Positions 1-64,000 of a stretch of 64,000 nucleotides of DNA are shown here, in pieces. The stretch is from Pseudomonadota bacterium (GTDB lineage: Bacteria; Myxococcota_A; Bradymonadia; UBA4248). Location of the stretch: the NCBI GenBank assembly GCA_017441205.1, contig JAFRYG010000150.1, positions 3,931 through 67,930 on the forward strand. The letters run 5' to 3'. Each line of letters begins with the position of its first letter. Position 1 is the first letter of the stretch. A program made the position numbers and the translations under genes. The notes below the pieces were generated by a model. It was not told the DNA's origin. It ran no database searches and saw nothing but the letters and a program-made list of their open reading frames with translations.

Positions 1-1618
1 TCGTGAAAGGTTCACAGTCATTACCGCAGACCGAAACGCATTTGTTCTGTTTGGCGTCGAATTTCTCCCCCCTATTGCATTTGGTTTCTACCCACTGCAG
101 ACAGTTATTGCCCTTATCGGTACACGTTCTGTATTTCGCCACCCCCTGAACTTCTATTTTGCCTTTTGAACTACAGTTCGATGTGCAGGTCGCCACACAT
201 GATGTAGTTTTCGAATCGCAGACCTGCCCAGCAGGACATGCGGCAGGCGTCCCCCATGCCAGACATCCATCCGCATCCTTTGTACATTTAGCAATGCCAT
301 TGCCATCGCATTTCTTTTCATCGGCAGTACATTCATTATCGCACGATTTGACGCATTTGAGCGTTGCGGAATCACAGGTTCCCCCTTCGCAGGCATCGAC
401 GACCGACCACGATGCACACCCCTTATCATCGGGCTTGCACTGTTCCAGTCCTTCGGCAGAACAGCGAGTGGATTGATTTTCAACACAAATTTCCGTGCAG
501 CCATCGATACACGTAAAAGTCGTCTCGTCGCAGTGCTTGCCGCTCTCGCAGGTCGTTTCATGTACCCAGGCATTGCAATCAACCTCGGCGTCCTCATTTT
601 TCTGACATACATAGATATCCTCACCATCGCACTTCTTCTGGTCTTTGGTCGGATCACAGGCATTCAGACAAAGATCTTCTGCACCAATACATTCCAGCAT
701 ATCAGAATCACACTTTCCGCCTTCGCAGGGATCGACGACTGACCACGATGCACAGCCTTTTTCGTCGGGCGTACATTGTTCCAGGCCCGCAGAGGAACAA
801 CGCTTCAGCGCATTCTCATCACAGGTTTCTGCGCAGCCCTCGGCACACTCGAATGTCGTCTCATCGCAGTGATAACCATGATCACACGTTTTTTCAGATG
901 CCCAGGCATAGCATTCGACCTCGGCGTCCTCTTTTTTCTGGCAAGTCAGAATTTCTTCGCCATCGCACTTCTTCTGATCCGTGTTCGGATCGCAGGCGTT
1001 CGGGCAAGTATCCTCTGAAGTTCCGGGCTCGACGCATTCAAACCCCGTCGATTCGTCGCAATGCTGACCTTCCGGGCAGCCATCTTCCGGGCATTGCTTC
1101 TGTTCATCACCGACGCACTCAAACCCTGTAGATTCGTCGCAGTGCTGACCTTCCGGGCAGCCATCTTCCGGGCATTGCTTCTGTTCATCACCGACGCACT
1201 CAAAGCCCGTCGATTCGTCGCAATGCTGACCTTCCTCGCATTCTGCAGGACACTTTTTCTCTTCATCGCCGACGCACTCAAAGCCCGTCGATTCGTCGCA
1301 GTGCTGACCTTCCTCGCATTTTTCGGGGCATTTTTTGTCCGTGTTGGTATTGTCTGCACATTTCTTTGTGGATTCATCGCAGTGCTTGCCGTCGGAGCAG
1401 GTTTCCTTCTTAACCCATTCGTAGCATGCATCCTCGGTATCCTCGGACTTTTCACAAGCATAGACAGCATCACCATCGCATTTCTGTTCATCCGGAGTGC
1501 ACGCGTCCGTGCAGGGATTCCCGACTTTCTCAGCGCCAGCATCCGAGTCGCATCCACTCACGCCGATCAGAGCCAGAACTGACGACAACAAAACAAAACG
1601 AAACATCTTATGATTCAT
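1..1618 (-). CDS. Secreted cysteine-rich repeat lipoprotein, partial. The C-terminus runs off the left window edge. It is a paralog of the downstream gene 1972..4293.
   Basis: Reverse-strand translation from the ATG at 1618 gives MNHKMFRFVLLSSVLALIGVSGCDSDAGAEKVGNPCTDACTPDEQKCDGDAVYACEK.... A GGAGG sits 7 nt upstream. There is a signal peptide plus lipobox (GVSGC). There is no stop codon down to position 1, which explains its absence from the ORF track. The first 150 nt of the window are near-identical to 3181..3330 of the neighbouring gene. Confidence 0.75.
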   Translation of the reverse strand, partial: MNHKMFRFVLLSSVLALIGVSGCDSDAGAEKVGNPCTDACTPDEQKCDGDAVYACEKSEDTEDACYEWVKKETCSDGKHCDESTKKCADNTNTDKKCPEKCEEGQHCDESTGFECVGDEEKKCPAECEEGQHCDESTGFECVGDEQKQCPEDGCPEGQHCDESTGFECVGDEQKQCPEDGCPEGQHCDESTGFECVEPGTSEDTCPNACDPNTDQKKCDGEEILTCQKKEDAEVECYAWASEKTCDHGYHCDETTFECAEGCAETCDENALKRCSSAGLEQCTPDEKGCASWSVVDPCEGGKCDSDMLECIGAEDLCLNACDPTKDQKKCDGEDIYVCQKNEDAEVDCNAWVHETTCESGKHCDETTFTCIDGCTEICVENQSTRCSAEGLEQCKPDDKGCASWSVVDACEGGTCDSATLKCVKSCDNECTADEKKCDGNGIAKCTKDADGCLAWGTPAACPAGQVCDSKTTSCVATCTSNCSSKGKIEVQGVAKYRTCTDKGNNCLQWVETKCNRGEKFDAKQNKCVSVCGNDCEPFT

Positions 1619-1944: not shown

Positions 1945-1980
1945 CGACGGAGGCCAAAACCTCCGAATAATTTATTTCTT
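1945..1980 (-). terminator. Stem-loop (ggagg-ccaaaa-cctcc) with flanking A/T runs immediately downstream of the gene 1972..4293.
   Basis: Inverted repeat 1949..1965 with T-rich flanks. Confidence 0.35.
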
Positions 1981-4293
1981 TTGGTAATCCACCGGGGTTA
2001 CGAAATCAAAATTGGCCACGAAGGCATGATTCTGCGTAAATCGATGCTCTGGCGCATCCATATCGATTTTGTAGCTCGGTTTTTTCTTGGGATCCTGAGG
2101 ATAATATTTGCTGCAGTAAAGCCATTCTTTCCCTGCTTTACCTTTTCCAAAACGATTTTTCCCGAGCGAAGATGTCGTAATCGAAGTGATGGTATAGTTT
2201 TTTGGATCGAACTTCAGCATTCTAAACCATCCCGTTCCGGCACCGCCATCATGTCTTTTGGTCACTTTTGTCTTGCCATCCTTGACCGTTTCACCATCCG
2301 GAATACATTTTCCTCTGATTCCGTTTTCGGACTGATAATCGACGACCATTTCGGCAACTGTATTCCCGTTATTGCCCTTATTCAGACGAAAACACGAACC
2401 GCTGTGATGTCCGTTGACGACGAGAATAATATTATTATGTTTTGCAACAAGATTTTTGAACATGTACTCGCCATTTGTCGCATTTTTATCAAAGTCTTTC
2501 AGTGCATCATTGTTCTTTTTGCTCGCATTGGAAAATCCGTTTGTATATTGACCGGATCCGTTCATACTGGGCTTGTCTTTACAATAATTATTTGCACCTG
2601 GCGTAATATATGCGTGAGATTCAATAATGACCTTATGATTGGGATATTTCGAAATGAGATCGTCGGCCCACTTGATCATCTCTTTGCGCGGAGCATATTC
2701 CAGGGCAATCACAAGAAAATCTATACCTGCTGCCTTAAATGTTATATATGAATTCCCGACTTTTGTAAAACCCTTAAACCATGCGCGATCCTTGAGCTTC
2801 GGACGCGAATTGTTAAACTTGCCGGACGAAGAGAATTTCGTTGCATCCCGTTTGGGGCCCTTACATTTGCTGCTGCCCTGAGAATTATCTTTACATCGCT
2901 TATAGTCGTGATTTCCAGGTGCAACCGTATAGGGCATATTCATGCTATCCATATATTTTGCATAAACTTTATCAGCGAACTGCCAGGCCTTTGAATCATT
3001 CGTATCTGTGATGTCCCCCAGATGAATGACAGCTTTAATGTTAAAATCTTTTCTGTAATCACTGATCCATTTGAGCTGATCCGGAAAAATATTCACACTT
3101 CCGTCCGTTTTGACAAATTCACCCTTACTATTTTTTTCAATATTTCGCGTGTAGTACTGTGTGTCCGGCAAAAACACGATAGTAAATGGTTCGCAGTCAT
3201 TGCCGCAGACCGAAACACATTTGTTCTGACCGGCATCGAATTTTTCGCCCTTCTTACATCTGGTCTCTTTCCACTGCAGACAGCCCTTTCCGTTGACGTC
3301 AGTACAAACCCTCTGCCACGTCGCATGGTTTTCCTTTTTACCTATTTCGGTGCAGTTCGAATTGCAGACATCGACACACTGAACGGTTTCCGAATCACAC
3401 GTTTTCTTATCCCCGCATGCTGCGGGTTCACCCCATACAAGGCAGCCGTCCGCATCCTTTATACATGTGGCAATACCATTGGCTTCGCACTTCTTTTCGT
3501 CATCCGCGCACTGATCATCACATGATTTGACGCATTTAAGCGTTTCTGGATCACAGGATCCGCCTTCGCAGGCATCGACAACCGACCATGAGGCACACCC
3601 CTTTTCGTCGGGAGCGCATTGTTCCAGTCCATCCACAGAACAGCGAGTGGACTGGGATTCCTCGCAAATCTCCGTACAACCGACGGTACACTCGAATGTC
3701 GTCTCGTCGCAGTGCTGGCCATTGTCGCACGTCATCACATGCGTCCATGTGTAACATCCATCGACCACCCCGCTTTCCTGACATTCATACAGATCCTCGC
3801 CATCGCACTTTTTGGGTTCCTTATCCGGATCGCAGGCATTCGGACAAAGGTCGATCTCATCATCATTGACGCATTCCAGCGAATCCGGATCGCAGGTTTT
3901 GCCCTCGCATCGATCGACGACGACCCAAGAGGCGCATCCGTTTGCGTCGGGCGTGCACTTGAGCAGTCCTTTCAGGGAACAGCGATAAAGCGATTCCTCA
4001 TCGCAGGTATCCGAACATTCGACAGCGACGCACTCGAATCTGGTTTCGTCGCAGGACTTGCCCTTCGCACATTTTTCCTTCACAGCCCATGCGTAACATG
4101 CACTCTCGTCTTCTTCATCTTTCTGACAAACATAGACTGCATTGCCATCGCACTTCAGATCATCCGGAGTACAAACATCCGTGCAGGCATCCCCGGTATC
4201 CGCTTTCTCAGAAACGACCTCGGAATCGCACCCGTTCAATCCGAGCAATGCAAGAGCAGACGACAACAAGACAAAACGAAATACCTTATTCAT
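1972..4293 (-). CDS. Secreted cysteine-rich repeat protein with a C-terminal calcineurin-like metallophosphoesterase domain.
   Basis: The track ORF 1972..4371 is trimmed to the internal Met, MNKVFRFVLLSSALALLGLNGC (signal peptide), which is preceded by GGAGGTG. There are about 8 repeats of the 'C..KC(D/E)G....C......CY.W....C..G..CDE..EC' type. The C-terminal part reads FLPDTQYY...HLGDITD...GNHDY...GHHS, which are metallophosphatase motifs. Confidence 0.8.
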   Translation of the reverse strand: MNKVFRFVLLSSALALLGLNGCDSEVVSEKADTGDACTDVCTPDDLKCDGNAVYVCQKDEEDESACYAWAVKEKCAKGKSCDETRFECVAVECSDTCDEESLYRCSLKGLLKCTPDANGCASWVVVDRCEGKTCDPDSLECVNDDEIDLCPNACDPDKEPKKCDGEDLYECQESGVVDGCYTWTHVMTCDNGQHCDETTFECTVGCTEICEESQSTRCSVDGLEQCAPDEKGCASWSVVDACEGGSCDPETLKCVKSCDDQCADDEKKCEANGIATCIKDADGCLVWGEPAACGDKKTCDSETVQCVDVCNSNCTEIGKKENHATWQRVCTDVNGKGCLQWKETRCKKGEKFDAGQNKCVSVCGNDCEPFTIVFLPDTQYYTRNIEKNSKGEFVKTDGSVNIFPDQLKWISDYRKDFNIKAVIHLGDITDTNDSKAWQFADKVYAKYMDSMNMPYTVAPGNHDYKRCKDNSQGSSKCKGPKRDATKFSSSGKFNNSRPKLKDRAWFKGFTKVGNSYITFKAAGIDFLVIALEYAPRKEMIKWADDLISKYPNHKVIIESHAYITPGANNYCKDKPSMNGSGQYTNGFSNASKKNNDALKDFDKNATNGEYMFKNLVAKHNNIILVVNGHHSGSCFRLNKGNNGNTVAEMVVDYQSENGIRGKCIPDGETVKDGKTKVTKRHDGGAGTGWFRMLKFDPKNYTITSITTSSLGKNRFGKGKAGKEWLYCSKYYPQDPKKKPSYKIDMDAPEHRFTQNHAFVANFDFVTPVDYQKK

Positions 4294-6556: not shown

Positions 6557-7414
6557 TCACTCACAAACGTCCTTAAAACCATCCACTTCAGTGCACACAT
6601 CAGAACACGTTGACTCAGCAGGTTTTGAGCCACCGCTGCAACTTAGGAGTGTAGTTTCATCCAGACAATATCCCGTGGCATAATTGCCCCAAATAACGCC
6701 ATATTTGCCGGAATCACTCTTCTGGCATACAGCATATTCGAACTTACCGCCATCACAATCACCCGTGCTTACCATATCATATTTAGTATCGTCTGAAGAA
6801 CATGACTCAACACAATCTACCTCACCTCCGAACAGATCACATGCGGTACCACTGCTACACTCATAAACTGCGTACTTGCCACTCTCACACACGAATGCAT
6901 CCCCACCGCAGCACAAATCTTTTGTACACTCGTCACCCTCATTGGGGCAATCACCTGCCGGCGGATTTGTCGAGCTCTCTTTCTTGCACTTCGCGGAACA
7001 GCCATCGCCGTCCGTCTTGTTGCCGTCATCGCATTCCTCGCCGCTTTCTTTCTTACCATTGCCACAGACGGCTGTTGGGGTTGCCTTTAATTTGCAATCG
7101 GCCGTGCAGTCATCACTGCCATCACATTCCTCGCCATTCTCAATTCTTCCATTGCCGCAAACAGGACTGGTCTGTGTCGGTGTCGATGGCGTCGATGGCG
7201 TCGATGGTGTGGTAGTTGTCGTTCCCGTTCCCGTTCCCGGATCCGTAGTGGTTTCATTCAAACAAAGAGCGGAGCAACCATCGCCATCATCGATGTTGCC
7301 ATCATCGCACTCTTCGCCTTCTTCCACGTCGAGTTCACCATTCCCGCAGTTATCGCATCCGGCCATACCGAATGCCGTAAGCAGCAGTGCAAGACTAAAA
7401 ACTTTCAGTTTCAT
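6557..7414 (-). CDS. Lipoprotein built from DUF4215/Myxococcus-type cysteine-rich repeats.
   Basis: Trimmed to MKLKVFSLALLLTAFGMAGC, which is preceded by GAAGGAG. Four repeats of CGNG.xE.GEECDDGN...GDGCS..C. Thr/Pro-rich linker (STPSTPSTP). Confidence 0.75.
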   Translation of the reverse strand: MKLKVFSLALLLTAFGMAGCDNCGNGELDVEEGEECDDGNIDDGDGCSALCLNETTTDPGTGTGTTTTTPSTPSTPSTPTQTSPVCGNGRIENGEECDGSDDCTADCKLKATPTAVCGNGKKESGEECDDGNKTDGDGCSAKCKKESSTNPPAGDCPNEGDECTKDLCCGGDAFVCESGKYAVYECSSGTACDLFGGEVDCVESCSSDDTKYDMVSTGDCDGGKFEYAVCQKSDSGKYGVIWGNYATGYCLDETTLLSCSGGSKPAESTCSDVCTEVDGFKDVCE

Positions 7415-31958: not shown

Positions 31959-31973
31959 CGGAATCAGAATTCC

Positions 31974-38604: not shown

Positions 38605-38615
38605 GACCAGCTCCT

Positions 38616-42336: not shown

Positions 42337-42404
42337 GATTTCTCCTTACTATTGTTCCACCGGAAGTGGGAGTCGTTTACTGGTTTGCAATATCTTACCA
42401 ATCC

Positions 42405-45814: not shown

Positions 45815-45977
45815 TGTTTTAAACCTCCATACGTGATGTTTTGATGCATGCAAATCGCATTGTACTTTATGTTGAGAGTTTCTGAGTCAAAAGGTATGTT
45901 CCGTGTTTCTGTATGATGCAATCATGCCCCTCTGTATTGTACTTCGCCAATGCAGAGGTTCATATATCACTGTTCAT

Positions 45978-52009: not shown

Positions 52010-55000
52010 ATGAAATCACAAAGACTGTTGTATTCGATGTGTATTTTTGCGGCCATGGGCTTGTATTCATGCAGTGATGATTCAGGCAGCACATCTTCGG
52101 AGGAGAAAGCCATCTGCGGCAATGGAATTCTGGAAGAAGATGAACTATGCGATGACGGCAATACGGAGGCTGGTGACGGTTGTTCGGACGACTGCACGGT
52201 TGAAGCCGGGTGGACCTGCGACAAGCCGGGAATTCCCTGCACAGAAGATGGGCCGGATAAAAAAGCAGTCTGCGGGGATGGCAAAATAACGGGTGATGAA
52301 TCCTGTGATGACGGGAACACCAAAGCTGGCGATGGTTGTTCGGGAGACTGTGCTGTAGAGGATGGCTGGCGCTGCCCAACGCCAGGTGAGCCATGCATCG
52401 AACGTATCGAGGAAGAGGATGCCGTTTGCGGCGACGGATTACTGGATGGCAGCGAGATCTGCGACGATGGTAATATCGAGTCCGGTGACGGCTGTTCGAG
52501 TGAATGCCGCATCGAAGATGGCTGGAACTGTGAAACGCCCGGTGCTGCCTGTGAAAAAACCAATATCGCCGAAGCTGTCTGCGGGGACGGCATTGTTGCT
52601 GATTATGAAGAATGCGACGACGGCAATGCCGAGGCAGATGACGGCTGTTCCTCAAATTGTGCATTAGAGACTGGCTGGCAATGTGAAACACCGGGACAAC
52701 CCTGTGTAAAAGATGTGGTGATCGACGCCGTCTGCGGCGACGGTCAAAAGGCTGACAACGAATCCTGCGACGATGGCAATCTGGATGCCGAGGATGGCTG
52801 TGCGCCCGATTGCACCATTGAGGAAGGATGGACCTGCGATAAACCCGGTGAACCTTGCGTACAAGTTTCTACCGTTCCGGAAGATGTCTGTGGGGATGGT
52901 GAGATCACTGGCGATGAAAAATGCGATGACGGCAATGCAAAGGCAGGCGATGGATGTTCAGACAACTGCACTATCGAAGCTGGCTGGGTTTGCGAAAATC
53001 CCGGCACGCCATGCACAAAGCAGCCCGTAGTTCCCGGAGATGTTTGTGGAGACGGCAAAATTTCCGGCAATGAGAAATGCGATGATGGCAACGCCAAAGA
53101 CGGCGATGGATGTTCTGCCAAGTGCGCCATCGAAAAGGGTTGGACCTGTGCCGAGGCCGGCAAGGCATGTTCGACAGTCTGTGGGGACGGTATCGTTGCA
53201 GGCAAGGAAAAATGTGACGACGGCAATACCAAGGCCGATGACGGTTGTTCTGCCAAGTGTGCCATTGAGGAATCCTACGTATGCAAGACTGCCGGCAAGC
53301 CCTGTACACCCGAATTTGATAACAAAACGAGCATTAAAATTCTTGGCGTGGGCAACAGCCTGATGCGGGACTCGACCGTTTATCTGTGCGATATTCTCGT
53401 CAATATGGGATATAAAAATGTCACGGTTGGCGTGTTATATACCGGCGGCAAGTCGATCAACTATCATGCAGAGAATATGCGCAAGAAAGGGTCGCCCGGG
53501 ACTTACTTTCTCAGTACATGCAAAGATTGTGATACCAAAAGCAAATGTACCGAAACGACCCCCAAAAAGACATATCTGGAAGCCATTAAGTCCGCAAAGT
53601 GGGACTATTTCATCATGATGACCTCTCCTTCCGGCGTAATCGATCTTTACAACAAAGATATTGATTATGTCATCGATACGGTCAAAAAGAATTCACCCAA
53701 AGAACCGGAGTTCGGCTGGGCGCTGACATGGGCATACCAAACGGGCGTTTCGCATTACCAAATGGCATTCCATGGATACAATCAAATTAAAATGTACGAA
53801 GCGGCCGTCATGTCGGTCAAAACCAAGATAGAACCAAGAAAAGATATCTCATTTGTCATCCCTGCGGGAACGGCCATCCAAAACCTCAGAAACGGCATTT
53901 TTGCGAATAATATGAATCGGGATGGCTATCACATGTCCTACAACAATGGTCGGTTTGCGGCCAATCTGATGTGGGCCAAACAAATCACCAAACGACCGGT
54001 CGGCAAAGTCACCTACAAACCGAATAAATATTCCTATACCGACAGGCAAATAAAAGCCCTCAAGGAAGCCGTCGTCAACGCCTATAAAACCCCTTATGCG
54101 GTCACGCGTCCCAGCAAAGGCGTCAACGGAACCTACGTCAAGCCAAACAAGGATCTCCAGAAAATCTTTTCCGATGCAGGCCACAATCTCAAGGATTATG
54201 TCGAAATCCCCGTCGGAGTAACGACAAAAGCCCTGTACAATTCGACGAAACAGGATGCCGATGTATGCAATCTCACGTCTGTATTAATCGACGGTACGAA
54301 ATATTGTTATGCCACACTGGTAAGTGCAGAGACGGGAAGCAAGAGTGCCGATCTTAAGAAACATGCAGCTTCGCGCATCTTTACGCGCTATGAGATCCCC
54401 AATGGCTCATTTATCGTCATCAAATCCGGGTATGAATATCGCGCAGATGGCTGGATTTCCTTCGACAAGGCAACCGCAGCAAAGAACCGGCCTGCTGTCG
54501 TGGATAAACAAATCACCGAGGTGACGGACAAATGGTGGGGGAAATATCAATACCGTGCATTTACTCTGTCCAAAAAAGGAGAACCCAAACTCAGCGACGA
54601 AGAGATGGAAAGCCTAGAAAAGGTCATGTCCATCTTTGTTCCGATTCACCATGACAATGCCGACGATGCTCTCGTCAAGGCGGGTTATGATTTGAGCAAG
54701 TACAAGAAGCTCGATCTGAGCCTGACGCACAAGGCTTATTGGAATTCGAACACAGTAAGCGACTTGCCGACAGGATTGACGAGACCGGACGCAAATAACA
54801 AATTTCCCACCAAACTCTTTGGCGGCGATAAAAACAGTACAGCAGTCAAGTTTGCAACCACGCGCATCTTTACCAAATCAGCAATTCCCAATGGCAGTCT
54901 GATTGTCCTCGTCAAGGGTTATCGTTATACCCCCGACGGTTGGAAGGCCCTTGATGTTTCAAACAAAGGTACAGATCTTCGTCCCAAACCCGTCGTTGCC

Positions 55001-55159
55001 AAGGATGCCAACTCTATCACCGTCGTTGATGATAAGTGGTGGGGTCAGTTCAAATATCGGGCGTTCAACATTACCAAGGCCGAACCGGTTGAACTTACGC
55101 CGCTGGAACAGTATCAGATGGGCGAGGTTTTTGCGATCTATACGCCAGTTTCCAAATAA
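52010..55159 (+). CDS. Secreted protein with about 10 DUF4215/Myxococcus cysteine-rich repeats and a C-terminal SGNH-like hydrolase-fold domain (GNSL block) followed by a duplicated about 100-aa module.
   Basis: GAGGAG RBS. Signal peptide MKSQRLLYSMCIFAAMGLYSC. The repeats are CGDG.I.G.E.CDDGN..AGDGCS..C..E.GW.C. The C-terminal region starts ILGVGNSLMRDS (GDSL-like block I with Asn), which resembles DUF4886/SGNH-fold proteins. The duplicated tail is 'RIFT..IPNGS.IV...GY.Y..DGW...KWWG..YRAF'. Confidence 0.75.
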   Translation: MKSQRLLYSMCIFAAMGLYSCSDDSGSTSSEEKAICGNGILEEDELCDDGNTEAGDGCSDDCTVEAGWTCDKPGIPCTEDGPDKKAVCGDGKITGDESCDDGNTKAGDGCSGDCAVEDGWRCPTPGEPCIERIEEEDAVCGDGLLDGSEICDDGNIESGDGCSSECRIEDGWNCETPGAACEKTNIAEAVCGDGIVADYEECDDGNAEADDGCSSNCALETGWQCETPGQPCVKDVVIDAVCGDGQKADNESCDDGNLDAEDGCAPDCTIEEGWTCDKPGEPCVQVSTVPEDVCGDGEITGDEKCDDGNAKAGDGCSDNCTIEAGWVCENPGTPCTKQPVVPGDVCGDGKISGNEKCDDGNAKDGDGCSAKCAIEKGWTCAEAGKACSTVCGDGIVAGKEKCDDGNTKADDGCSAKCAIEESYVCKTAGKPCTPEFDNKTSIKILGVGNSLMRDSTVYLCDILVNMGYKNVTVGVLYTGGKSINYHAENMRKKGSPGTYFLSTCKDCDTKSKCTETTPKKTYLEAIKSAKWDYFIMMTSPSGVIDLYNKDIDYVIDTVKKNSPKEPEFGWALTWAYQTGVSHYQMAFHGYNQIKMYEAAVMSVKTKIEPRKDISFVIPAGTAIQNLRNGIFANNMNRDGYHMSYNNGRFAANLMWAKQITKRPVGKVTYKPNKYSYTDRQIKALKEAVVNAYKTPYAVTRPSKGVNGTYVKPNKDLQKIFSDAGHNLKDYVEIPVGVTTKALYNSTKQDADVCNLTSVLIDGTKYCYATLVSAETGSKSADLKKHAASRIFTRYEIPNGSFIVIKSGYEYRADGWISFDKATAAKNRPAVVDKQITEVTDKWWGKYQYRAFTLSKKGEPKLSDEEMESLEKVMSIFVPIHHDNADDALVKAGYDLSKYKKLDLSLTHKAYWNSNTVSDLPTGLTRPDANNKFPTKLFGGDKNSTAVKFATTRIFTKSAIPNGSLIVLVKGYRYTPDGWKALDVSNKGTDLRPKPVVAKDANSITVVDDKWWGQFKYRAFNITKAEPVELTPLEQYQMGEVFAIYTPVSK

Positions 55160-55391: not shown

Positions 55392-57764
55392 ATGAAGAGG
55401 TATTTCAGATTCATCCTATGGACGGCAGCTGCATCGGCTGCGGGAATTGCAGGAGTTTCGGCTACAGCTGCAGCACAGGATTTGGCCTGGCCGGCAGGAC
55501 AGAATTGTACCCATATTTCGACATACTATGGCTATCGTGCATCACATTTTCACAGCGGCATTGATATTGCGTGCGGCGGCGACATCGATATTCTCGCGGC
55601 AGCAGACGGCAAAGTCGTTTCCGAAACGAATTCCCAGGGGCAGTGCCAATATTCCAAATCCGCCGGCACATGCGTTTCGTGCAAGCAATCCATGGGCAAC
55701 TCCCTGACCATCGATCACGGCAATGGCTATCAGACCATCTACATGCATCTCAAGAAGAAGCTGGTAAAAAAAGGCGATGAGGTTTCCTGCGGCGATGTCA
55801 TCGCGAAGATGGGAACGACGGGATGCTCGACCGGCCAGCACCTGCATTTTACGGTCAAGATCAACGGCAAAACGGACGATCCCTTCAATCACGTCAAAAA
55901 AGCCAACTACACGTGTCCCGCAGGCAGCGGCGGTTCCCTCGGTATGGTGTCGATTTTTGAGCCGCAAAATACCGATATCGACGGCGACGGCGTCGCCGAA
56001 ATCTGCATCCGCGGCTCAAAGGGCCTGCAATGCATCTTCCCCAAAACGGACATTACGACCAAAAACATTATCTTCGACACCTTCAGTGACGAAAAGGGCT
56101 GGAACGACGTTTCGAACTACGCCACGATTCGTTTTGCCGATGTCAATGGCGACGACAAATCGGATGTCTGTGCCCGTTCGAATTCCGCCTATCAGTGCTG
56201 GCTGTCGAACGGCACGGGCTTTACCGACGGCGGCAGCGTCAGCATGAGCGACAAAGATGGCTACAACGACGTCAAATACTATGCGACGACAAAACTCGCC
56301 GATATCAATGCCGACGGCAAATTCGATTTCTGCGCGCGGTTCAAGGATCACTTCAATTGTTACCTGTCGACCGGCGACGGATTTTCGGAAACCCCGATTC
56401 ACTTCGACGACATGGGCGACGCACAGGGCTGGGGCAAGCCGCAGTATTACATGACGATCCGCATGGCCGACATCAATGGCGACGGCATGGCGGATGTTTG
56501 CGGGCGCAGCAGCAGCGGCGTGCTCTGCTGGCCTTCGCATGGCGACAGCTTCGGCGATGCCATTACGGGCCCCGCCTGGACGGACGCCAACTGGGAAAAA
56601 GCCCCGTATTATTCGACGATCCGCATGCCCGATATCAATGGCGACCACAAAGCCGATCTCTGTGCACGCGACAACAGCGGCGTCGTGTGCCATCTTTCGA
56701 CCGACGATGGCTTTGGCGACGAGATTCGCGGCCCCGAATGGTCTGACAGCAATGGCTGGAAGGATCCGGAGCATTACGCAACGCTCCAGTTCGGCGATAT
56801 CAACGGCGACGGCATGGACGATATCTGCGCCCGCGCCGATGCCGGCCTTATCTGCCACCTGTCCAATGGCAATGGATTTGAAGCGGACAGCTTTACCATC
56901 GATGAATTCGGCGACGCCAAAGGCGGCAACAAACCTGCCATCTACCGAACCATCCACATCGGCGACATCGATGGTGACGGCAAAATGGACATCTGCGGGC
57001 GCAATACAGAAACCGCAGTCTGCTTCAAGTTCAACGGTGAAGGCTTCGACCGCATCGAAGGTGCGCCGCTTTCGGATTCCAGCGGCTGGAATGGCAACGA
57101 ATATGCTTCGACCTATCGCCTTGGCGGTCCCAAGCCCAAAGATTGCTCGTTCCTGGCCGAAATCTGTGACGAAAAGGACAACAACTGCAACGGCGAAGTC
57201 GACGAAGGCAACGTATGCTGCGAACCGTCCGAAGAAATCTGCGACGGTGCCGACAACGACTGCGACGGCCAAATCGACGAAGATGGCGTCTGCTGCGTGC
57301 CTGAGGTCTGTGACGGCTTGGACAATGACTGCGACGGTGAAGTCGACGAAGACAACATCTGCTGCGAACCGACCGAAGAAATCTGTGATCGCATCGACAA
57401 TGACTGCGACGGCCAAATCGATGAAGACAACGTTTGCTGCGAACCTTCGGAAGAAGTCTGCGACGGCGAAGACAACGACTGCGACGGCCAAATCGACGAA
57501 GACGATGTCTGCAATACCGAACCCGACGAAAAACAGGATGATAGCGACGAAAAAGGCGACAATAACGACGATTACAAAAATAACGGTAACGACACAGATG
57601 AAGAGCCCGATTCGGTTGAACCCAACGAGCGTTCCATCCATGTGTCGGACGATTGCTCGAGCCAGCCGCAGGGAACGTCTTCGCATCCGATGCCCTGGCT
57701 GCTTGGATTTGGCGGTCTTTTGGGCATGATTCTGTATCGCCGTCGTCGCGAGAATTCGAAATGA
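55392..57764 (+). CDS. Secreted M23 (LytM-type) metallopeptidase, followed by about 9 FG-GAP/VCBS-like repeats, 5 MopE-like 'CDG.DNDCDG.IDED' repeats, an acidic linker and a C-terminal sorting-signal-like tail.
   Basis: GGAGG RBS. Signal peptide MKRYFRFILWTAAASAAGIAGVSATAAAQD. M23 motifs HSGIDIA...DG.V...GNSLTIDHGNGYQTIYMHL...GTTGCSTGQHLHF. Repeats Y.TIRFADVNGDGK.DVCAR. Tail CSSQPQGTSSHPMPWLLGFGGLLGMILYRRRRENSK. Confidence 0.85.
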   Translation: MKRYFRFILWTAAASAAGIAGVSATAAAQDLAWPAGQNCTHISTYYGYRASHFHSGIDIACGGDIDILAAADGKVVSETNSQGQCQYSKSAGTCVSCKQSMGNSLTIDHGNGYQTIYMHLKKKLVKKGDEVSCGDVIAKMGTTGCSTGQHLHFTVKINGKTDDPFNHVKKANYTCPAGSGGSLGMVSIFEPQNTDIDGDGVAEICIRGSKGLQCIFPKTDITTKNIIFDTFSDEKGWNDVSNYATIRFADVNGDDKSDVCARSNSAYQCWLSNGTGFTDGGSVSMSDKDGYNDVKYYATTKLADINADGKFDFCARFKDHFNCYLSTGDGFSETPIHFDDMGDAQGWGKPQYYMTIRMADINGDGMADVCGRSSSGVLCWPSHGDSFGDAITGPAWTDANWEKAPYYSTIRMPDINGDHKADLCARDNSGVVCHLSTDDGFGDEIRGPEWSDSNGWKDPEHYATLQFGDINGDGMDDICARADAGLICHLSNGNGFEADSFTIDEFGDAKGGNKPAIYRTIHIGDIDGDGKMDICGRNTETAVCFKFNGEGFDRIEGAPLSDSSGWNGNEYASTYRLGGPKPKDCSFLAEICDEKDNNCNGEVDEGNVCCEPSEEICDGADNDCDGQIDEDGVCCVPEVCDGLDNDCDGEVDEDNICCEPTEEICDRIDNDCDGQIDEDNVCCEPSEEVCDGEDNDCDGQIDEDDVCNTEPDEKQDDSDEKGDNNDDYKNNGNDTDEEPDSVEPNERSIHVSDDCSSQPQGTSSHPMPWLLGFGGLLGMILYRRRRENSK

Positions 57765-57863
57765 CGGTTGTTTGAGTGGCCCGTGCTATTGCGCCGAAGG
57801 CGCAATACGCACCGGGTGCGCGGCTATGAGGGCTGCGCCCGCATACGCCGCCCAAACCAAAGA

Positions 57864-57998: not shown

Positions 57999-60368
57999 AT
58001 GCGCAAACATACCAGAATGATTCTTTTGTACGTATTTGCCATGTATGCAGGGATGATGGCTGCGAATGATGGCGCGCAGGCCCAGGATATGGCATGGCCC
58101 GTAGCAACCTGCACAAGCATTTCAGATGACTATGGCCCGAGGGATGGAACTACGCACTCGGGCATTGATATCTCGTGCGCTGGCAACCATGACGTCCTTG
58201 CCGCAGCCGATGGTGAAGTCATCGCTGAAACGACTGATAACACCCAATGCACTTATTCAAATGGACATTGTTATGGTTGCGTTAATGAGAGGGGCAACTC
58301 GCTGACAATCAAACACGACAATGGCTGGCACACGGTCTCCATGCATCTGGAGAAGAAATATGTTTCCACAGGGGACAGGGTAAAATGCGGACAACCGATC
58401 GGAAAAATGGGCACGACCGGCTGTTCGACGGGGCAGCATCTGCATTTTACGACCTACGAAACGAGCTACAGCAAGCATGATTCCCCCTGGAATCACGTGG
58501 AAAAGGGAAACATGACATGCCCGTCCAGCGGCTGGATTGCAGGCCTCGACCTGGTGACGACATACGACCCGCAGAACACGGACATCGACGGTGACGGCGT
58601 CGCCGAAATCTGTATCCGGGGCAATGCCGGCATATACTGTACGTTCCCCAAAACCGACATCACCGCCAAATCGGTAATCTTCGACAAGCTGACCGACAAG
58701 GACGGATGGGATGACAGCTCCAATTACGCGACGATTCGTTTTGCCGACGTCAACGGCGACGGCAAGGCCGATGTCTGTGCGCGCAGTGACACCAAACTGA
58801 GCTGCTGGATTTCGAACGGAAGCGGTTTCGAAACGGAATGGGGGAGCGTACCCATGGCCGATGCGGATGGTTATAAGGCCCCGCAATACTATGCCACCAT
58901 TAAATTTGCCGATATCAACGGCGATGCGAAAGACGATTTCTGTGCTCGCTTTAAAGATGGCTTTAAATGCTATCTTTCGTCCGAAAATGGTTTTTCCGAA
59001 ACCAGCGTCGATCTCAAGGCAATGTCGGATGCCGATGGCTGGGATAATGCGTCGAGGTATGCGACGATCCGCATGGCGGATATCAACGGCGATGGCATGG
59101 CAGACGCCTGCGGACTCAGCAAATCGGGCTGGCAGTGCTGGCCGTCGAAAGGCGATTCCTTCGGCGAACCCATTCAAGGTCCTGCATGGAGCGATGATAC
59201 ATGGAGCGAGGCCATGTATTTTGCGACGATCCGCATGCCGGATATCAATGGCGACCACAAAGCAGACGTATGTGCGCGCGATGCCAAAGGAATTGTCTGC
59301 CACCTTTCGACCGGCGAGGGCTGGGGAGAGGCCATTCGCGGCCCGGAACTCTCTGATGAAAAAGGCTGGGGAAAACCGGAATATTACATGACGCTCCAGT
59401 TCGGCGATCTCAACAAAGACGGCAAGGATGACCTCTGTGCGCGTGGAGCCGACGAGTTTATTTGCTATCTTTCGGATGGCGAAAGCTTTAAACGCGACGA
59501 AAAATACGTCCTCACCGAGTTCAGCAATGCCAAAGGCGGCAACGCCCCCGGCGTGTACCGAACCATTCACCTCGGGGATGTCAATGGCGACGGCATCATG
59601 GATGTCTGCGGCCGCAACCCAAGCAAAGCGGTATGTTTCGTCTATGGCGGCGATACACCAAAACGCCTTGAAGGCCCAAATCTCAATGATTCCTATGGCT
59701 GGGATGAAAATCCATACGGTTCGACGTTCCGTTTTGGCGGTCCCAAGCCAAAAGACTGCAGCTTTGTCGAAGAAATCTGCGACGAAAAGGACAACAACTG
59801 CAACGGCGAAATCGACGAAGGCGGCGTCTGCTGCGTGCCGGAAGTCTGCGACCAGAAGGACAACGACTGCGACGGCGAAGTCGACGAAGACAACGTCTGC
59901 TGCGAACCGTCCGATGAAATCTGTGACGGCAAAGACAATGACTGCGACGGTTCAGTCGACGAAGACAACGTTTGCTGCGTGCCTGAAATCTGCGACCAGA
60001 AGGACAACGACTGCGACGGAGAAATCGACGAAGACAACGTTTGCTGCGAACCGTCCGAAGAAATCTGTGATCAGAAGGACAACGACTGCGACGGTGAAGT
60101 TGACGAAGACGATGTCTGCAAAAAGCCGGAAGAAGAGAAACCCGATAAGCCCGATAAGCCCGATAAGCCTGAAACGCCGGATACTCCGGATAAGCCAGAT
60201 ACACCCGATACGCCGGATGAATCCGCCGACAACACGCCAGCTTCCTCTGCAGAAGGCTGCTCGAGCCAGCCGCAGGGAACGTCTTCGCATCCGATGCCCT
60301 GGCTGCTTGGATTCGGCGGTCTTTTGGGCATGATTCTGTATCGCCGTCGCCGCGAGAGTTCGAAATAA
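57999..60368 (+). CDS. Tandem paralog of the previous gene, with the same M23 peptidase + FG-GAP-like + MopE-like + Pro/Asp/Lys linker + C-terminal sorting-signal-like tail architecture.
   Basis: Start trimmed to MRKHTRMILLYVFAMYAGMMAANDGAQAQD (GGAGG RBS). The same domain order. The last about 110 nt of the CDS and about 40 nt downstream are nearly identical to 57655..57800. Confidence 0.85.
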   Translation: MRKHTRMILLYVFAMYAGMMAANDGAQAQDMAWPVATCTSISDDYGPRDGTTHSGIDISCAGNHDVLAAADGEVIAETTDNTQCTYSNGHCYGCVNERGNSLTIKHDNGWHTVSMHLEKKYVSTGDRVKCGQPIGKMGTTGCSTGQHLHFTTYETSYSKHDSPWNHVEKGNMTCPSSGWIAGLDLVTTYDPQNTDIDGDGVAEICIRGNAGIYCTFPKTDITAKSVIFDKLTDKDGWDDSSNYATIRFADVNGDGKADVCARSDTKLSCWISNGSGFETEWGSVPMADADGYKAPQYYATIKFADINGDAKDDFCARFKDGFKCYLSSENGFSETSVDLKAMSDADGWDNASRYATIRMADINGDGMADACGLSKSGWQCWPSKGDSFGEPIQGPAWSDDTWSEAMYFATIRMPDINGDHKADVCARDAKGIVCHLSTGEGWGEAIRGPELSDEKGWGKPEYYMTLQFGDLNKDGKDDLCARGADEFICYLSDGESFKRDEKYVLTEFSNAKGGNAPGVYRTIHLGDVNGDGIMDVCGRNPSKAVCFVYGGDTPKRLEGPNLNDSYGWDENPYGSTFRFGGPKPKDCSFVEEICDEKDNNCNGEIDEGGVCCVPEVCDQKDNDCDGEVDEDNVCCEPSDEICDGKDNDCDGSVDEDNVCCVPEICDQKDNDCDGEIDEDNVCCEPSEEICDQKDNDCDGEVDEDDVCKKPEEEKPDKPDKPDKPETPDTPDKPDTPDTPDESADNTPASSAEGCSSQPQGTSSHPMPWLLGFGGLLGMILYRRRRESSK

Positions 60369-60663
60369 CGGTTGTTTGGGTGGCCCGTGCTATTCGTAAC
60401 CTTTTTACAATCCGAGTAGCTGTTTTCGGAATTCATCATAATGATTACGCCGCCATGGACGGCGGCGAGAGGCGAGGGAGGCATGTCCATGGATGGACAT
60501 TCGACCCGTAACTGCGATCGCCATAAGAAGCGTGCGGGGGTCGTAGTGGGTGTTCACAATCGAACACCCCCTACCGCGTAAGCGTACAAAAAAAGCATCT
60601 GCGCATCAATGCGCAAATAAACAATTCAGCAATAGGTATAGCCAAATCAATAATAAACAATAA

Positions 60664-61041: not shown

Positions 61042-64000
61042 ATGACGTTGAAACGCAATCGTAAGTTTTTCTTAATTCTAGCAACATCAATCATAGCGGT
61101 TGGCTGCAGTTCATCGTCCCATCACGACGATGATAACACCCCCGAAGGCCCGTCAAACAGCAGTATTCAGATTACATCCCTGCGCGGGTCACCATCCTGG
61201 GGAGACGCGCCCCTTTTGACGGAAGTGAGATGGGAGATTTCCAATCCGTCTCAGGAACTCCTGACATGTCGCCTGGACATGAATGGAGACGGACAGGCCG
61301 AGTACACCATAGAATCGTGCCCGGTCACCGGCAGTCAGGCACATATGTTCGAGATCCCTGGCGCTCATGTTGTGAATCTGACGGTTGAAGGCGAAGACGG
61401 CAAAGTTGTTTCGTCCGAAACACATGTATATGCCAATCATCTCGAATGGAATGATCGTACGAAGTTTTCGGACGAAATGGCCGGCGTTCATGAAATTGAG
61501 GTTACGAGCAATTCCCTTGTAATTACGGTTGATTCCGAAGGGGAACAGCCCACATTTGAAGAAGGGCAGGTACTCGTGAGTACACAGGGCGGCGGCTATT
61601 TGAGAAAAGTCGTTGGTGTGCATTACGACGGCGATCAGATTATTCTTGAAACGGAACCCGCCACGCTTGAGGATGCCATTTCGACCGGCAATTTTGGTGC
61701 CGAGGATGTCGTTGCGATTTCGGATGTTCAGTGCATGTCGAACTGCGAAACGTTTGTCGCGAAGCGTTCGTTAGATCGCCGCCATTTGCGCGACAATTAT
61801 ACGGATGCGCTCGAATTCGATGTTCATCCGCCTGCCTCCGAGAACATGCAGCTGCACAATGCCTCGCTTCGCATCGGCGACCATCTCGCCTATTCGATGG
61901 CGATGAGCAATTCTGCGATGTCCGACATGACCATGGTGTGGTCGAATTATTTTGAATTTCGTGCGCACATTGCGAGTACGGCTGCCGACAGCATGCAGCT
62001 CACGCTCCCGGTACTGCATATCAATTCAGCGGGTGTGGGCTTGTTCCCGATTGCATTCGATCTGAGCGGTAGTTTAAAAATCGTTTCGAATGGCATTTTC
62101 GAGGGCGATATCAGCATCAACTACGAAGTGGTCACGACGATGGTCTATGCCAACGGGCAATTCACGACGACACAGACGCTGGCCAGTGAACCCGAAATTA
62201 CCCTGAGCAACATTGATACCACAGCAGATATGCCGCTCAAGGTACTGGCGGCACCAACGCAGACGATGTCAATTTATGGCTTGAGCGGCCCACAGATCGA
62301 TCCGTCGGTCAAAACATTAATTTATAATGTTCAGCCAAATACGTCCCAGGTCGAGGCTGCATGTACCCAGGCGACCGCGAATGGAACTTCGTCCAGCAGT
62401 GGAACGCTTGGATTTACTGCGAATGCGTTCAATGTCAGTGGTTCGGGAACGCTCGAGGATGTACGATTTTTCGACAATTGTATTTATCTGCAGTCAGGTC
62501 CCCCTTCCGCCGAAACACCTGCTCCCGGTACGACTCCCGCGCCGGATCCCGCCGTGACGCAGCCGGACTGCACCGCCGGAGAAATCAAGTGCGAAGGTCA
62601 GCAGCTCTACCAATGCGTGAACGGTGTCTGGATCGATTCGATGGTGTGTGCTGAAGATGCCATCTGCGACAGTTTTGAGGGCAAGTGCATCACACCCGAA
62701 TGTGACGAGGGTTCCGTACAGTGTGAAGGCGATGTCCTCAAGCAATGTACTCAGAATGCCTGGCAAATGATCGATTGTGCGGCCGCCGATATGATTTGTG
62801 TTCCCGGCCGTGGGGCATGTGAACCCAAAGTCTGCGAAGACGGCGTCAATACGTGCGAAGGCACGCGCCTCGTATCGTGTCAGGGTAATGTCAAATCCTA
62901 TACGTATTGCGGTGAATTGCCCGCAACCGAAGAGGCAGTTTATGGCTTTTTGTGCAGTGACACTGCACATGCCTGCGCACCCAGACTGTGCCTCGACAAC
63001 AGCACACGGTGCAATAACAACGCCATTGAGATTTGTTTGAACAATGCCTGGACTGTACTTGAAGGCTGCGAAGCCAAAACCCAAAAATGTACCGAAGGCG
63101 AATCGGGTCCTGAATGCCGCAAGCTCGTTTGTCAACCCGGCGAAACGATATGCCAGGACGATGGCAAGGGGCATATTCTGCTCCATTCATGTGATGCCGA
63201 TGGATCGCAGTTCGCAGCCGGCGTACCCTGCCCCGATGCCGATGGCAAAGCCCAGATTTGCAGGGACAACAAATGCGTCGAACAGATATGTGTCGAAGAT
63301 GATGTTCGATGTACCCAGGATAGCCTGAGTGTCGAAGTTTGCCACGATAATGCATGGAAAAAGACGAATTGCAATGTCCTCGAAACGGACGACCGTATTT
63401 GTCTTGAAGAGCCCGATTCGGCGACACCAGCCCCAACTTGCTATGATCGCATCTGCGAACCGGATACAACCAAGTGTACAGGTGTCGATAATCGCCAGGT
63501 TTCAGTTTGTGAACTGGGCATTCGATGGTCTGATCCCACCGATTGTGCCGATGGCATGATCTGCATGGACAAGGACGGTGTCGCCGACTGCAGAACCCCC
63601 GAATGCATCCCCGCGAGCTTTACGCCGTATTGCCAGAGCACGCCCGAAGCCTGGGTGACATGCAATCCCGAAACCTTTACCCGCGTCACCAACCTCTGTG
63701 CGCCCGAAGAACACTGCGAAGCACTCGCCAATGGCTGTGTGCTGTACTGCGGCAATAATATCATCGATACCGCAGACGAGGTTTGCGATGGAACTGCGGC
63801 TTTTGCCGATACCTGTGCAAGCGTTCTTGGACGCGCCAATGCTCTGGGCAAACTCGCCTGCAGTGATACATGTACTTTCGTCACAACAGGATGCTACTGG
63901 TGCGGCGATGGAATGCTGAACGAAGGCGAAGAATGCGACACCACGATTCCCGAAGGTACGGTTTGTCCGGATGGTACGTCTGGAACGCCGATCTGCAGCA
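61042..64000 (+). CDS. Large secreted lipoprotein, partial (runs off the right window edge). It has an N-terminal about 500-aa non-repetitive region followed by EGF-like Cys repeats (C.EG...C.G..L..C..NAW...C...C).
   Basis: ATG at 61042, giving MTLKRNRKFFLILATSIIAVGCSSSS (lipobox). The frame stays open to position 64000, which explains its absence from the ORF track. The Cys repeats share the pattern of 28700..31507. Confidence 0.7.
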   Translation, partial: MTLKRNRKFFLILATSIIAVGCSSSSHHDDDNTPEGPSNSSIQITSLRGSPSWGDAPLLTEVRWEISNPSQELLTCRLDMNGDGQAEYTIESCPVTGSQAHMFEIPGAHVVNLTVEGEDGKVVSSETHVYANHLEWNDRTKFSDEMAGVHEIEVTSNSLVITVDSEGEQPTFEEGQVLVSTQGGGYLRKVVGVHYDGDQIILETEPATLEDAISTGNFGAEDVVAISDVQCMSNCETFVAKRSLDRRHLRDNYTDALEFDVHPPASENMQLHNASLRIGDHLAYSMAMSNSAMSDMTMVWSNYFEFRAHIASTAADSMQLTLPVLHINSAGVGLFPIAFDLSGSLKIVSNGIFEGDISINYEVVTTMVYANGQFTTTQTLASEPEITLSNIDTTADMPLKVLAAPTQTMSIYGLSGPQIDPSVKTLIYNVQPNTSQVEAACTQATANGTSSSSGTLGFTANAFNVSGSGTLEDVRFFDNCIYLQSGPPSAETPAPGTTPAPDPAVTQPDCTAGEIKCEGQQLYQCVNGVWIDSMVCAEDAICDSFEGKCITPECDEGSVQCEGDVLKQCTQNAWQMIDCAAADMICVPGRGACEPKVCEDGVNTCEGTRLVSCQGNVKSYTYCGELPATEEAVYGFLCSDTAHACAPRLCLDNSTRCNNNAIEICLNNAWTVLEGCEAKTQKCTEGESGPECRKLVCQPGETICQDDGKGHILLHSCDADGSQFAAGVPCPDADGKAQICRDNKCVEQICVEDDVRCTQDSLSVEVCHDNAWKKTNCNVLETDDRICLEEPDSATPAPTCYDRICEPDTTKCTGVDNRQVSVCELGIRWSDPTDCADGMICMDKDGVADCRTPECIPASFTPYCQSTPEAWVTCNPETFTRVTNLCAPEEHCEALANGCVLYCGNNIIDTADEVCDGTAAFADTCASVLGRANALGKLACSDTCTFVTTGCYWCGDGMLNEGEECDTTIPEGTVCPDGTSGTPICS

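Follow-up and report, generated by a model that had tools for sequence, protein, structure and literature searches.

Predicted surface proteins with cysteine-rich spacers in a gut Myxococcota genome: a likely local expansion of a lineage-wide design

Introduction

This work concerns a 64,000-nucleotide (nt) stretch of contig JAFRYG010000150.1, hereafter the window, where 14 genes encode cysteine-rich (Cys-rich) proteins predicted to be exported. Most combine a membrane anchor, tandem Cys-rich repeats (a spacer or stalk) and one or more globular domains (heads). The closest described counterpart is TraA of Myxococcus xanthus, a cell-surface receptor with a PA14 head, a stalk of Cys-rich tandem repeats and a MYXO-CTERM tag, whose stalk was proposed by its authors to be rigid (PMC3325183). 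The tripartite layout of MYXO-CTERM, and its sorting by the myxosortase MrtX, have been described for Myxococcota (PMC3325183, PMC11980579). Other comparable proteins are the modular wall hydrolases, that include the lysostaphin/LytM-type M23 enzymes and the SH3b-NlpC/P60 proteins (Trichomonas NlpC1/2). More broadly, DUF4215/TIGR02232, MopE, FG-GAP and MYXO-CTERM are known hallmarks of Myxococcota proteomes.

The window is, in our assessment, likely to be a dense and recently expanded local patch of a lineage-wide design of anchor, Cys-rich spacer and head, and not a discrete system. A first-pass annotation, made by a model from the letters alone, had described a dedicated arsenal unlike any described system. 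The second part of that claim was too strong, as TraA is a published surface protein with a head, a Cys-rich stalk and MYXO-CTERM (PMC3325183). This locus extends, in a real and variable way, a design known before from myxobacteria, and does not amount to a new kind of system. What is new here are the hydrolase heads on such stalks, the mirror-image version with a lipobox, the repeat families that lack a model, the gut lineage, and an island with intraspecific polymorphism.

The source is an uncultured, animal-gut-associated Myxococcota genome near the GTDB genus UBA4248. The product of gene 45978-48533 is 100% identical to NCBI MBQ9817806.1, from a metagenome-assembled genome (MAG) deposited as “Proteobacteria bacterium”. 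In terms of RpsA-anchored loci among GTDB species representatives, the nearest relatives are uncultured Myxococcota MAGs with 85-97% RpsA identity, UBA4248 among them, from buffalo rectum, roe-deer omasum, cattle colon and termite gut. The genus UBA4248 is on record from pig faeces too, with a genome of about 3 Mb. We found no paper describing the lifestyle of uncultured gut Myxococcota, whose MAGs recur from ruminant, pig and termite guts.

Domain architecture

The window contains about 27 genes, according to the listing of open reading frames (ORFs) and their translations. The 14 Cys-rich ORFs (Table 1; named below by their first coordinate or by their head) have 4.2-13.5% Cys, against 0.4-2.5% in the housekeeping genes, and span 32,976 nt, which is 51.5% of the window. 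Two of them, 2-1618 and 61042-63999, are cut by the window ends, and these come on top of the 12 listed at first. The proteins can be read as having three parts, namely an anchor (an N-terminal lipobox, or a C-terminal tag of Cys, transmembrane (TM) helix and Arg), a tandem Cys-rich spacer that usually lies beside the anchor, and at least one globular head. At least 12 genes on the same plan had been reported at first. The shared Cys-rich exported design stands, for 14 genes, while a uniform order of the parts does not, and a distinct C-terminal domain was not found in each gene, since 6557-7414 and 27900-28646 have no recognisable head.

Within their first 33 residues, 12 of the 14 proteins carry a lipobox. 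The two M23 proteins have instead a type I signal peptide and a C-terminus of the form ...CSSQPQGTSSHPMPWLLGFGGLLGMILYRRRR..., and the Cys motif, TM helix and Arg-rich C-terminus are found in three proteins (M23a, M23b and the S1 protein, with HPDC…TM…RRKK in the latter). The initial description, of a stalk followed by a C-terminal head, fails in several cases. The M23 heads are N-terminal with the MopE repeats at the C-terminus, the S1 domain is central, and the repeats of 61042 come after a domain of 500 residues. Judging from the order of the predicted parts, a better rule is that the repeat spacer usually adjoins the membrane anchor. For 13 of 14 proteins, the array and the anchor are on the same side of the head, with the array either after the lipobox or, in M23a/b and S1, before the C-terminal tag. 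This rule is a simple and testable generalisation of the TraA stalk idea.

In terms of repeats, iterated hidden Markov models (HMMs) gave three families further to DUF4215 and MopE, namely the metallophosphoesterase (MPE) type, a composite type common to 28700 and 61042, and the short repeats of the DUF285 protein. Profile-profile comparison separates five unrelated families: the DUF4215 superfamily with three subtypes, MopE, the MPE type, the SH3_28700/MXAN_6577-like type and the DUF285-protein type. Canonical DUF4215 matched the C39 type at 89% and the S1 type at 81%, and these two matched each other at 95%, with all other pairs below 20%. The early estimate of five or more families thus agrees with ours, although three of the types listed then belong to one superfamily.

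The “myxo_disulf_rpt” model (TIGR02232; PF13948, DUF4215) matches three proteins above its curated cut-offs of 27 bits in Pfam and 20.8 bits in NCBIfam. These are 52010 (174.6 and 345.3 bits, eight repeats), 6557 (29.6 and 72.8 bits) and the S1 protein (31.7 bits, for the whole protein). The M23 proteins have 4-5 MopE repeats (PF11617) above cut-off, which were placed by motif search. The 56-aa repeats of the three C39 genes are detected by neither model, nor by any other in Pfam or NCBIfam, and their kinship with DUF4215 is limited to the first half, the N-terminal 24 residues (hhalign probability 89%, plus BLAST cross-hits). We therefore filed them as a divergent DUF4215 variant. An annotation gap is seen here, with at least three repeat types having no Pfam or NCBIfam model that reaches threshold: the MPE type, which no Pfam family covers, the 54-56-aa DUF4215 variant and the short repeats of the DUF285 protein. 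A fourth is the composite 28700 repeat, with a sub-threshold MXAN_6577-like match only.

The spacing of the cysteines is exact across copies: C-x10-C-x10-C-x3-C-x7-C-x6-C in 8/8 copies of the 52010 gene, C-x10-C-x10-C-x13-C-x3-C-x6-C in 12/12 copies of the three C39 genes, and C-x10-C-x11-C-x13-C-x3-C-x6-C in 8/8 copies of the S1 gene. For this reason, the repeats are not compositional artefacts. It is extremely improbable that the Cys-rich regions are compositional noise or that the ORFs were mis-called, given 8-12 exactly spaced copies per family, HMM matches of up to 345 bits, hundreds of homologs, 100% identical proteins deposited in NCBI and near-identical contigs from independent samples.

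Prediction of the stalk structure with AlphaFold2 (AF2) succeeded for one type and not for another. In the 1972 protein, modelled with a mean predicted local distance difference test (pLDDT) of 83, the stalk appears as six consecutive small beta modules before the phosphoesterase domain. In the case of the 39808 protein (9 sequences), the C39-type stalk has a pLDDT below 50 and the model is confident only in the heads. After removing the lipidated Cys, the number of cysteines is even in 9 of 12 lipoproteins, and two of the odd cases are explicable by a catalytic or tag Cys. This parity is a weak argument, because 42659-45814 departs from it, having 41 Cys and none that is catalytic.

Heads and catalytic motifs

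All the domains first called by eye were reproduced by HMM searches of Pfam and NCBIfam, with “GH-A-like” corresponding to DUF5722 and “SGNH-like” to DUF4886. The partial paralog of the metallophosphoesterase is 2-1618. The 1972 head matches PF00149 with 39.6 bits and has the motifs GDITD, GNHD and GHH; its fold neighbours, by Foldseek on the AF2 model, are purple acid phosphatases, GpdQ and Lmo2642 (E 1e-7 to 1e-6). The S1 domain (PF00089, 76.5 bits) has TAAHC at 266, DIAL at 326 and GDSGGP at 448. M23a and M23b match PF01551 with 91.9 and 79.6 bits, with complete zinc-ligand motifs HSGID (HxxxD) and HLHF (HxH), and their relatives in the PDB include ShyA, LytM and lysostaphin. Their FG-GAP propeller resembles the GlcNAc-specific lectin PVL (PDB 5mb4; E 3.9e-13 over 370 residues). 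The esterase-like DUF4886 head of 52010, with GNS and DGYH motifs, matches PDB 4i8i (E 1.5e-32), deposited as a hypothetical protein. The DUF5722 head of 42659-45814 has HNEV and TENG motifs, and its first description as a glycosidase-like head stands, with the addition of a C39_2-like domain that had been missed.

The papain-like C39_2 heads are a different case. The three C39 genes match PF13529 (Peptidase_C39_2) with 68.7, 34.3 and 59.4 bits. Searches of the PDB by sequence, with C39_2 domains (single sequence and a five-sequence profile) and with DUF5722, gave nothing meaningful, so for the C39_2 domains a fold search was needed. The AF2 model of the 39808 heads shows a duplicated unit of an SH3-like and a papain-like domain, and its Foldseek neighbours include SH3b-NlpC/P60 wall hydrolases, the C39 domains of ComA and PCAT1, and 3erv. 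The fold and the Pfam match therefore hold, but of the five C39_2-like domains a single one keeps the catalytic Cys and His, namely the C-terminal domain of 39808-42336 (GCGPT, GHY; Cys703, His799). According to the alignment, the Cys is replaced by Gly or Ser in the remaining four, and in two of these the His is absent or Gln. The C39_2-like domain of 42659-45814 has Gly at this position, and neither module of 45978-48533 has the Cys (Gly in one, Ser/Gln in the other). Because of these replacements, most of the papain-like heads are probably not proteases.

Catalytic motifs are complete in 8 of the 14 proteins. Heads with intact motifs are M23a/b, S1, MPE, DUF4886, DUF5722 and one C39_2 domain. 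By their predicted domains, several heads are of the cell-wall-lytic type, namely M23 joined to a lectin-like propeller, and SH3b paired with a papain-like domain. Heads of this kind could form a dedicated predatory or bacteriolytic arsenal, co-evolved and co-regulated for killing and digesting bacteria. Two M23 endopeptidases fused to a propeller of GlcNAc-lectin type, SH3b and papain-like modules with wall hydrolases among their fold neighbours, and an S1 protease would suit it, and Myxococcota include many predators. We nonetheless find such an arsenal unlikely. The loss of the catalytic Cys in four of five C39_2 domains argues against it, as do the several proteins with binding-only heads or no head, and the genomic evidence given below.

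Comparison with described systems

TraA (with its paralog MXAN_4924) comes from the same phylum, is exported, and has Cys-rich tandem repeats between its head and an anchor of lipid or TM type, as seen in the window. The M23 and S1 proteins also share its order of head, repeats and Cys/TM/Arg tag, and the TraA head is polymorphic, as is a cassette of gene 45978. On the other hand, HMM scans found neither a PA14 head nor a TIGR04201 repeat in the window proteins. They are thus not members of the TraA family, and the relation is one of analogy only. Other differences are that most of the heads here are hydrolases and the repeats come from other families, that 12 of the 14 proteins are mirror images, with an N-terminal lipobox and usually repeats followed by the head, and that no traB-like partner gene is present here.

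As for MYXO-CTERM, an invariant-Cys motif, a TM helix and an Arg-rich tail are found in M23a/b, in S1 and in 16 homologs. The signature here is D-C-S-S-x-P-L/Q and not the Myxococcus consensus, and there is no myxosortase gene within the 64-kb window. The modular wall hydrolases are similar in their M23 motifs, in the placement of SH3b before a papain-like domain, and as fold neighbours. They differ in that the window proteins are, by prediction, anchored to a Gram-negative envelope via long Cys-rich spacers and, compared with SH3b-NlpC/P60, in that the papain-like domains are of the C39_2 type, most without a nucleophile.

Modularity beyond the window

A homolog search with the 39808-42336 protein returned at least 250 proteins. 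About nine have the whole architecture, and the rest match the stalk only, which is around 26-30% of the query. The partners found on the C39-type spacer in these homologs are GH43, trypsin, DUF5722, lamin-tail, SRCR, Kelch, RCC1, dockerin and PPC. In the case of the phosphoesterase family, 44 of 47 matches have a Metallophos head, with between 0 and 8 full stalk repeats. The MPE-type repeat was found in 306 of 1.84 billion representative clusters (E <= 1e-3), next to PKD, NosD/beta-helix, LTD, PPC, CAP, trypsin and GH43. With the C-terminal SH3b and C39_2 module as query, a single match was obtained, in a search whose word-index limit left known full-length homologs unrecovered. The idea of a combinatorial, interchangeable architecture is borne out by these results, as spacers are found on many unrelated heads and one head is found with 0-8 repeats.

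Other contigs of the source MAG contain further C39-type and GH43-type stalked proteins, and one relative has a C39 ortholog elsewhere in its genome, beside two tagged trypsins. Since the same spacers are found with many different heads elsewhere, and further paralogs lie on other contigs of the MAG, the window looks like a local concentration of a lineage-wide display scaffold. This scatter of paralogs, including the same stalk with GH43, counts against a dedicated arsenal.

These partners bring in another use, seen tentatively here as a possible one, in which the proteins are nutrient-foraging surface enzymes. They would work in the manner of cellulosome-displayed enzymes or of the lipoprotein glycosidases on the surface of Bacteroidota, breaking down microbial debris and polymers from the diet or the host, and would stay attached so that the products are kept near the cell. 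This use is consistent with the DUF5722 (GH-like) and DUF4886 heads, with the phosphoesterase, with the GH43, dockerin, PPC and lamin-tail partners that these stalks bear in relatives, and with the rumen, colon and termite gut origin of close relatives. Against it stand the absence from the window of transporter genes or genes like those of polysaccharide utilization loci (PUL) beside the enzymes, and the over-representation here of peptidoglycan-directed heads. The heads in the window lean to peptidoglycan, while those of the wider family do not.

Genomic context and variation

Seven of the Cys-rich modular genes lie in a 21-kb island of nine genes, bounded by an M49-like peptidase gene and rpsA. 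Its genes have a G+C content at third codon positions (GC3) of 0.38-0.51, compared to 0.59-0.70 in the flanking housekeeping genes. In ten related species the island is absent, with rpsA directly adjoining the M49 gene, followed by mnmG, and by glpK where the contig reaches. Two other species have a different insert of about 4.7 kb at this site (L001 5068-9269 and L004 5221-7039), that carries an ankyrin-repeat lipoprotein, an unrelated lipoprotein with 8.5% Cys and an AAA-ATPase/PD-(D/E)XK protein. In one more species, the site is occupied by a DUF285 gene. As two related species carry a different cargo here, the site has the look of a recurrent hot spot for integration. No insertion scar or flanking repeat was found, and the intergenic DNA of relatives aligns to the window only at the coding ends.

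The island is kept within the species, with the same gene order in overlapping contigs from three other samples or assemblies, and a conspecific contig aligns to it with 95-98% DNA identity. Conservation of the locus is therefore seen within the species and not across the ten related ones. Tandem paralogy is frequent (M23a/b 61%, the two phosphoesterases 62%, the three C39 genes 41-58% and 27900/28700 28% identity).

This context also bears on the arsenal claim. The set is interrupted by housekeeping genes, and the Pfam and NCBIfam domain scans found no secretion, sorting or regulatory gene and no immunity gene in the window. With paralogs on other contigs, the island missing in ten relatives and no linked secretion or regulatory genes, the word “dedicated” is not supported for this locus.

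Within the island, gene 45978-48533 is polymorphic. Its product is 72.7% identical to that of a conspecific allele (L024 3955-6360; L025), compared to 98-99% for the neighbouring genes. One 56-aa stalk repeat is exactly absent in the conspecific alleles (five against four repeats). In addition, a cassette of about 210 aa has around 54% identity between conspecific alleles, in a comparison of two alleles only, with sharp borders and flanks of approximately 100%. Gene conversion was considered as the origin of this cassette and rejected, as neither allele is more than 51% identical to another known paralog.

The cassette is one reason to consider surface adhesins or recognition receptors, with heads that mainly bind (to cells, host mucus or particles), like TraA-type recognition of kin or partners. 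We regard this as somewhat doubtful. A stretch of 54% identity inside alleles otherwise 98-100% identical is the pattern expected of a polymorphic specificity module, and the DUF285/PARCEL, SH3b-only and dead C39_2 heads, together with the lectin-like propeller, would fit such a role; the DUF285/PARCEL head is probably a binding domain. Nevertheless, 8 of the 14 proteins have complete catalytic motifs, the PA14 domain and the TIGR04201 repeat are missing, and the cassette comparison rests on two alleles.

Other observations within or near these genes are of a different nature. Two small proteins in the island, exported or membrane-bound and not Cys-rich, are conserved in the conspecific contigs. 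One has QPVY repeats and TM segments, the other a signal peptide, a TPR-like segment and C-terminal TM helices, and they might be partners of the neighbouring enzymes. In the intergenic region between S1 and DUF285, a 35-nt stretch matches a segment of the rpsA-M49 intergenic region in the related species L003 with 91% identity. It may be what is left of the ancestral spacer, or else a small intergenic element that is conserved.

The 3' ends of M23a and M23b are 96% identical over 137 nt, a stretch that spans the tag, the stop codon and the first downstream bases. Set against the 61% overall, this suggests gene conversion or a strong constraint on the tag. In the 52010 protein, two domain copies of about 150 aa follow DUF4886 (aa ~730-1049; …RIFT..IPNGS.IV…GY.YR.DGW…). 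They have no family match, and may be a carbohydrate-binding module.

Proposed mechanism and function

Returning to the local patch of a lineage-wide design, its proteins probably use their Cys-rich spacers to keep hydrolase or binding domains at a distance from the cell. They would be exported by Sec and then either receive a lipid on the lipobox Cys or undergo processing of the C-terminal tag, with oxidation of the cysteines in the periplasm. Once the proteins are displayed on the cell surface, the spacer would keep the head off the producer's own envelope, and the heads would have neighbouring cells, polymers or cell-wall debris as their targets, either acting on these or binding them. DUF285, SH3b and the catalytically dead C39_2 copies would be binding-only heads. 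The locus itself probably originated by tandem duplication, gain and loss of repeats and domain shuffling, with a core, the 21-kb island, that would have entered a site prone to recombination between rpsA and the M49 gene.

Several points weigh against this picture. All steps are inferred from sequence features and from the TraA and MYXO-CTERM literature, with localisation, disulfides and activity predicted only. The lipobox calls come from a regular expression only ([LVI..][ASTVI..][GAS]C), and the C-terminal tags, although placed at the extreme C-terminus by TIGR03901 (MYXO-CTERM), score 15.6 and 17.7 bits against a cut-off of 20. The rule of a spacer next to the anchor is broken by 61042, which has a lipobox followed by a 500-aa non-Cys domain; this gene is cut, and a C-terminal anchor is possible. 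In homologs with at least three repeats (n=118), 16/16 tagged proteins have the array far from the N-terminus and in 82/102 untagged ones it starts within the first 100 aa, an association (Fisher 3e-10) drawn from sequences that are not phylogenetically independent. The rigidity of the C39-type stalk is assumed, as AF2 gave it no confident structure. DUF4215 and MopE have acidic, DxDxDG-like motifs, and stabilisation by a metal (Ca2+) is a possible alternative or addition to disulfides. The gut habitat, being reducing, fits awkwardly with dozens of extracellular disulfides.

As for the purpose of these proteins, bacterial lysis, foraging on debris or glycans, and adhesion or recognition are all plausible, and foraging on glycans or necromass and adhesion fit as well as predation. 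A more specific and rather speculative proposal, which we consider improbable, is a general display scaffold with tunable disulfide-rich stalks (0-8 or more repeats) beside a lipid anchor and with swappable heads, used for contact-dependent lysis of nearby gut bacteria, where polymorphic cassettes of SH3b and pseudo-peptidase would set the specificity for prey or partner. If true, enzyme display of the cellulosome-like or sortase-anchored kind would have here a Gram-negative counterpart, serving predation in the anaerobic gut.

From this window, much of the coding capacity of gut Myxococcota seems to be devoted to stalked hydrolases and binding proteins anchored at the surface. The window also hints at a fast turnover of stalked proteins, with the island present or absent between species and, within a species, one gene that shows a change in repeat number and a cassette replacement. 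If the heads do act on other bacteria, these organisms would belong to the gut community as contact-dependent lytic members, and their proteins would be a source of modular peptidoglycan hydrolases.

Other features of the window

Table 1. Positions of the Cys-rich genes, of other identifiable genes and of smaller elements in the window.
Feature	Position	Strand	Anchor	Composition or remarks
Metallophosphoesterase paralog	2..1618	-	lipobox VSGC	cut by window start; 13.5% Cys; spacer of 7 full and 4 short MPE-type Cys repeats; full-length protein of 956 aa in source MAG (P0138)
Metallophosphoesterase lipoprotein	1972..4293	-	lipobox LNGC	six ~52-aa MPE-type repeats with Cys and Trp, aa 41-364, then head
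DUF4215/TIGR02232 lipoprotein	6557..7414	-	lipobox MAGC	three repeats; Cys-rich C-terminal region
Small Cys-rich lipoprotein	27900..28646	-		11.7% Cys; paralog of the N-terminus of the 28700 protein
SH3b lipoprotein	28700..31507	-		12% Cys; ~5 MXAN_6577-like/Stig1-like composite repeats; C-terminal SH3b (SH3_3)
S1 protease protein	32856..35870	-	lipobox LTAC; HPDC / TM helix / RRKK tag	Cys-rich N-terminal region; S1 protease aa 252-491; eight 54-aa DUF4215-variant repeats aa 528-960, then tag
DUF285/PARCEL lipoprotein	36088..38604	-		~400 aa of short Cys repeats (5 HMM-defined copies), then DUF285/PARCEL repeat head
C39 lipoprotein	39808..42336	-		four 56-aa DUF4215-variant repeats, then two SH3b + papain-like (C39_2) modules
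C39/DUF5722 lipoprotein	42659..45814	-		three 56-aa repeats; SH3-like domain; C39_2-like domain; DUF5722 TIM-barrel glycosidase-like head
C39 lipoprotein	45978..48533	-		five 56-aa repeats; two SH3b + C39_2-like modules
DUF4886 lipoprotein	52010..55159	+	lipobox LYSC	eight canonical DUF4215/TIGR02232 repeats; DUF4886 SGNH-like head
M23a	55392..57764	+	MYXO-CTERM-like tag	type I signal peptide; M23 head; FG-GAP propeller; five MopE repeats; acidic linker; tag
M23b	57999..60368	+	MYXO-CTERM-like tag	paralog of M23a; architecture and tag alike
Lipoprotein cut by window end	61042..63999	+	lipobox AVGC	~500-aa N-terminal domain without family; SH3_28700-type Cys modules; DUF4215-variant repeats
Island	27900..48533	-		between M49-like peptidase gene and rpsA
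Stalk repeat, 56 aa	47706..47873	-		in gene 45978-48533; absent in conspecific alleles
Cassette, ~210 aa	46149..46781	-		in gene 45978-48533; linker, SH3b, most of C-terminal C39_2-like domain
Small island gene	31974..32591	-		exported or membrane protein
Small island gene	38616..39392	-		exported or membrane protein
S1/DUF285 intergenic stretch	35987..36021			35 nt
M23a 3' end	57654..57790			137 nt
M23b 3' end	60258..60394			137 nt
Lipoprotein, 568 aa	7718..9424	-	lipobox LSGC	His/Tyr-rich N-terminal part
TPR protein, 4015 aa	9679..21726	-		not Cys-rich
glpK	22159..23730			housekeeping
mnmG	23902..25761			housekeeping
M49-like peptidase gene	26149..27750	-		left bound of island
rpsA (ribosomal protein S1)	48881..50590	-		right bound of island; anchor for comparative genomics

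No tRNA gene was found in the window, and the Rfam scan gave no match. The PHROGs scan returned generic M23 and DUF285 matches only, so there is no sign of a prophage.

The TPR-rich ORF adjoins glpK, and it is absent beside glpK in the related loci examined. Its N-terminal part contains an 18-nt tandem repeat with more than 33 copies (~20357-21200), encoding helical repeats similar to (AEEAKA)n. The 568-aa lipoprotein next to it has, after its His/Tyr-rich part, around 25 Ser/Gly/Pro/Thr-rich repeats of 13-14 aa (…GSRPSTSTGSSYGT…), and the protein matches no family.

Lastly, among the RpsA-anchored loci, contig CAVGZQ010000001.1, labelled “Bacteroidaceae bacterium”, has a rpsA-M49-mnmG block of the Myxococcota type with 92% RpsA identity. 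It is probably a mis-binned or mislabelled MAG.

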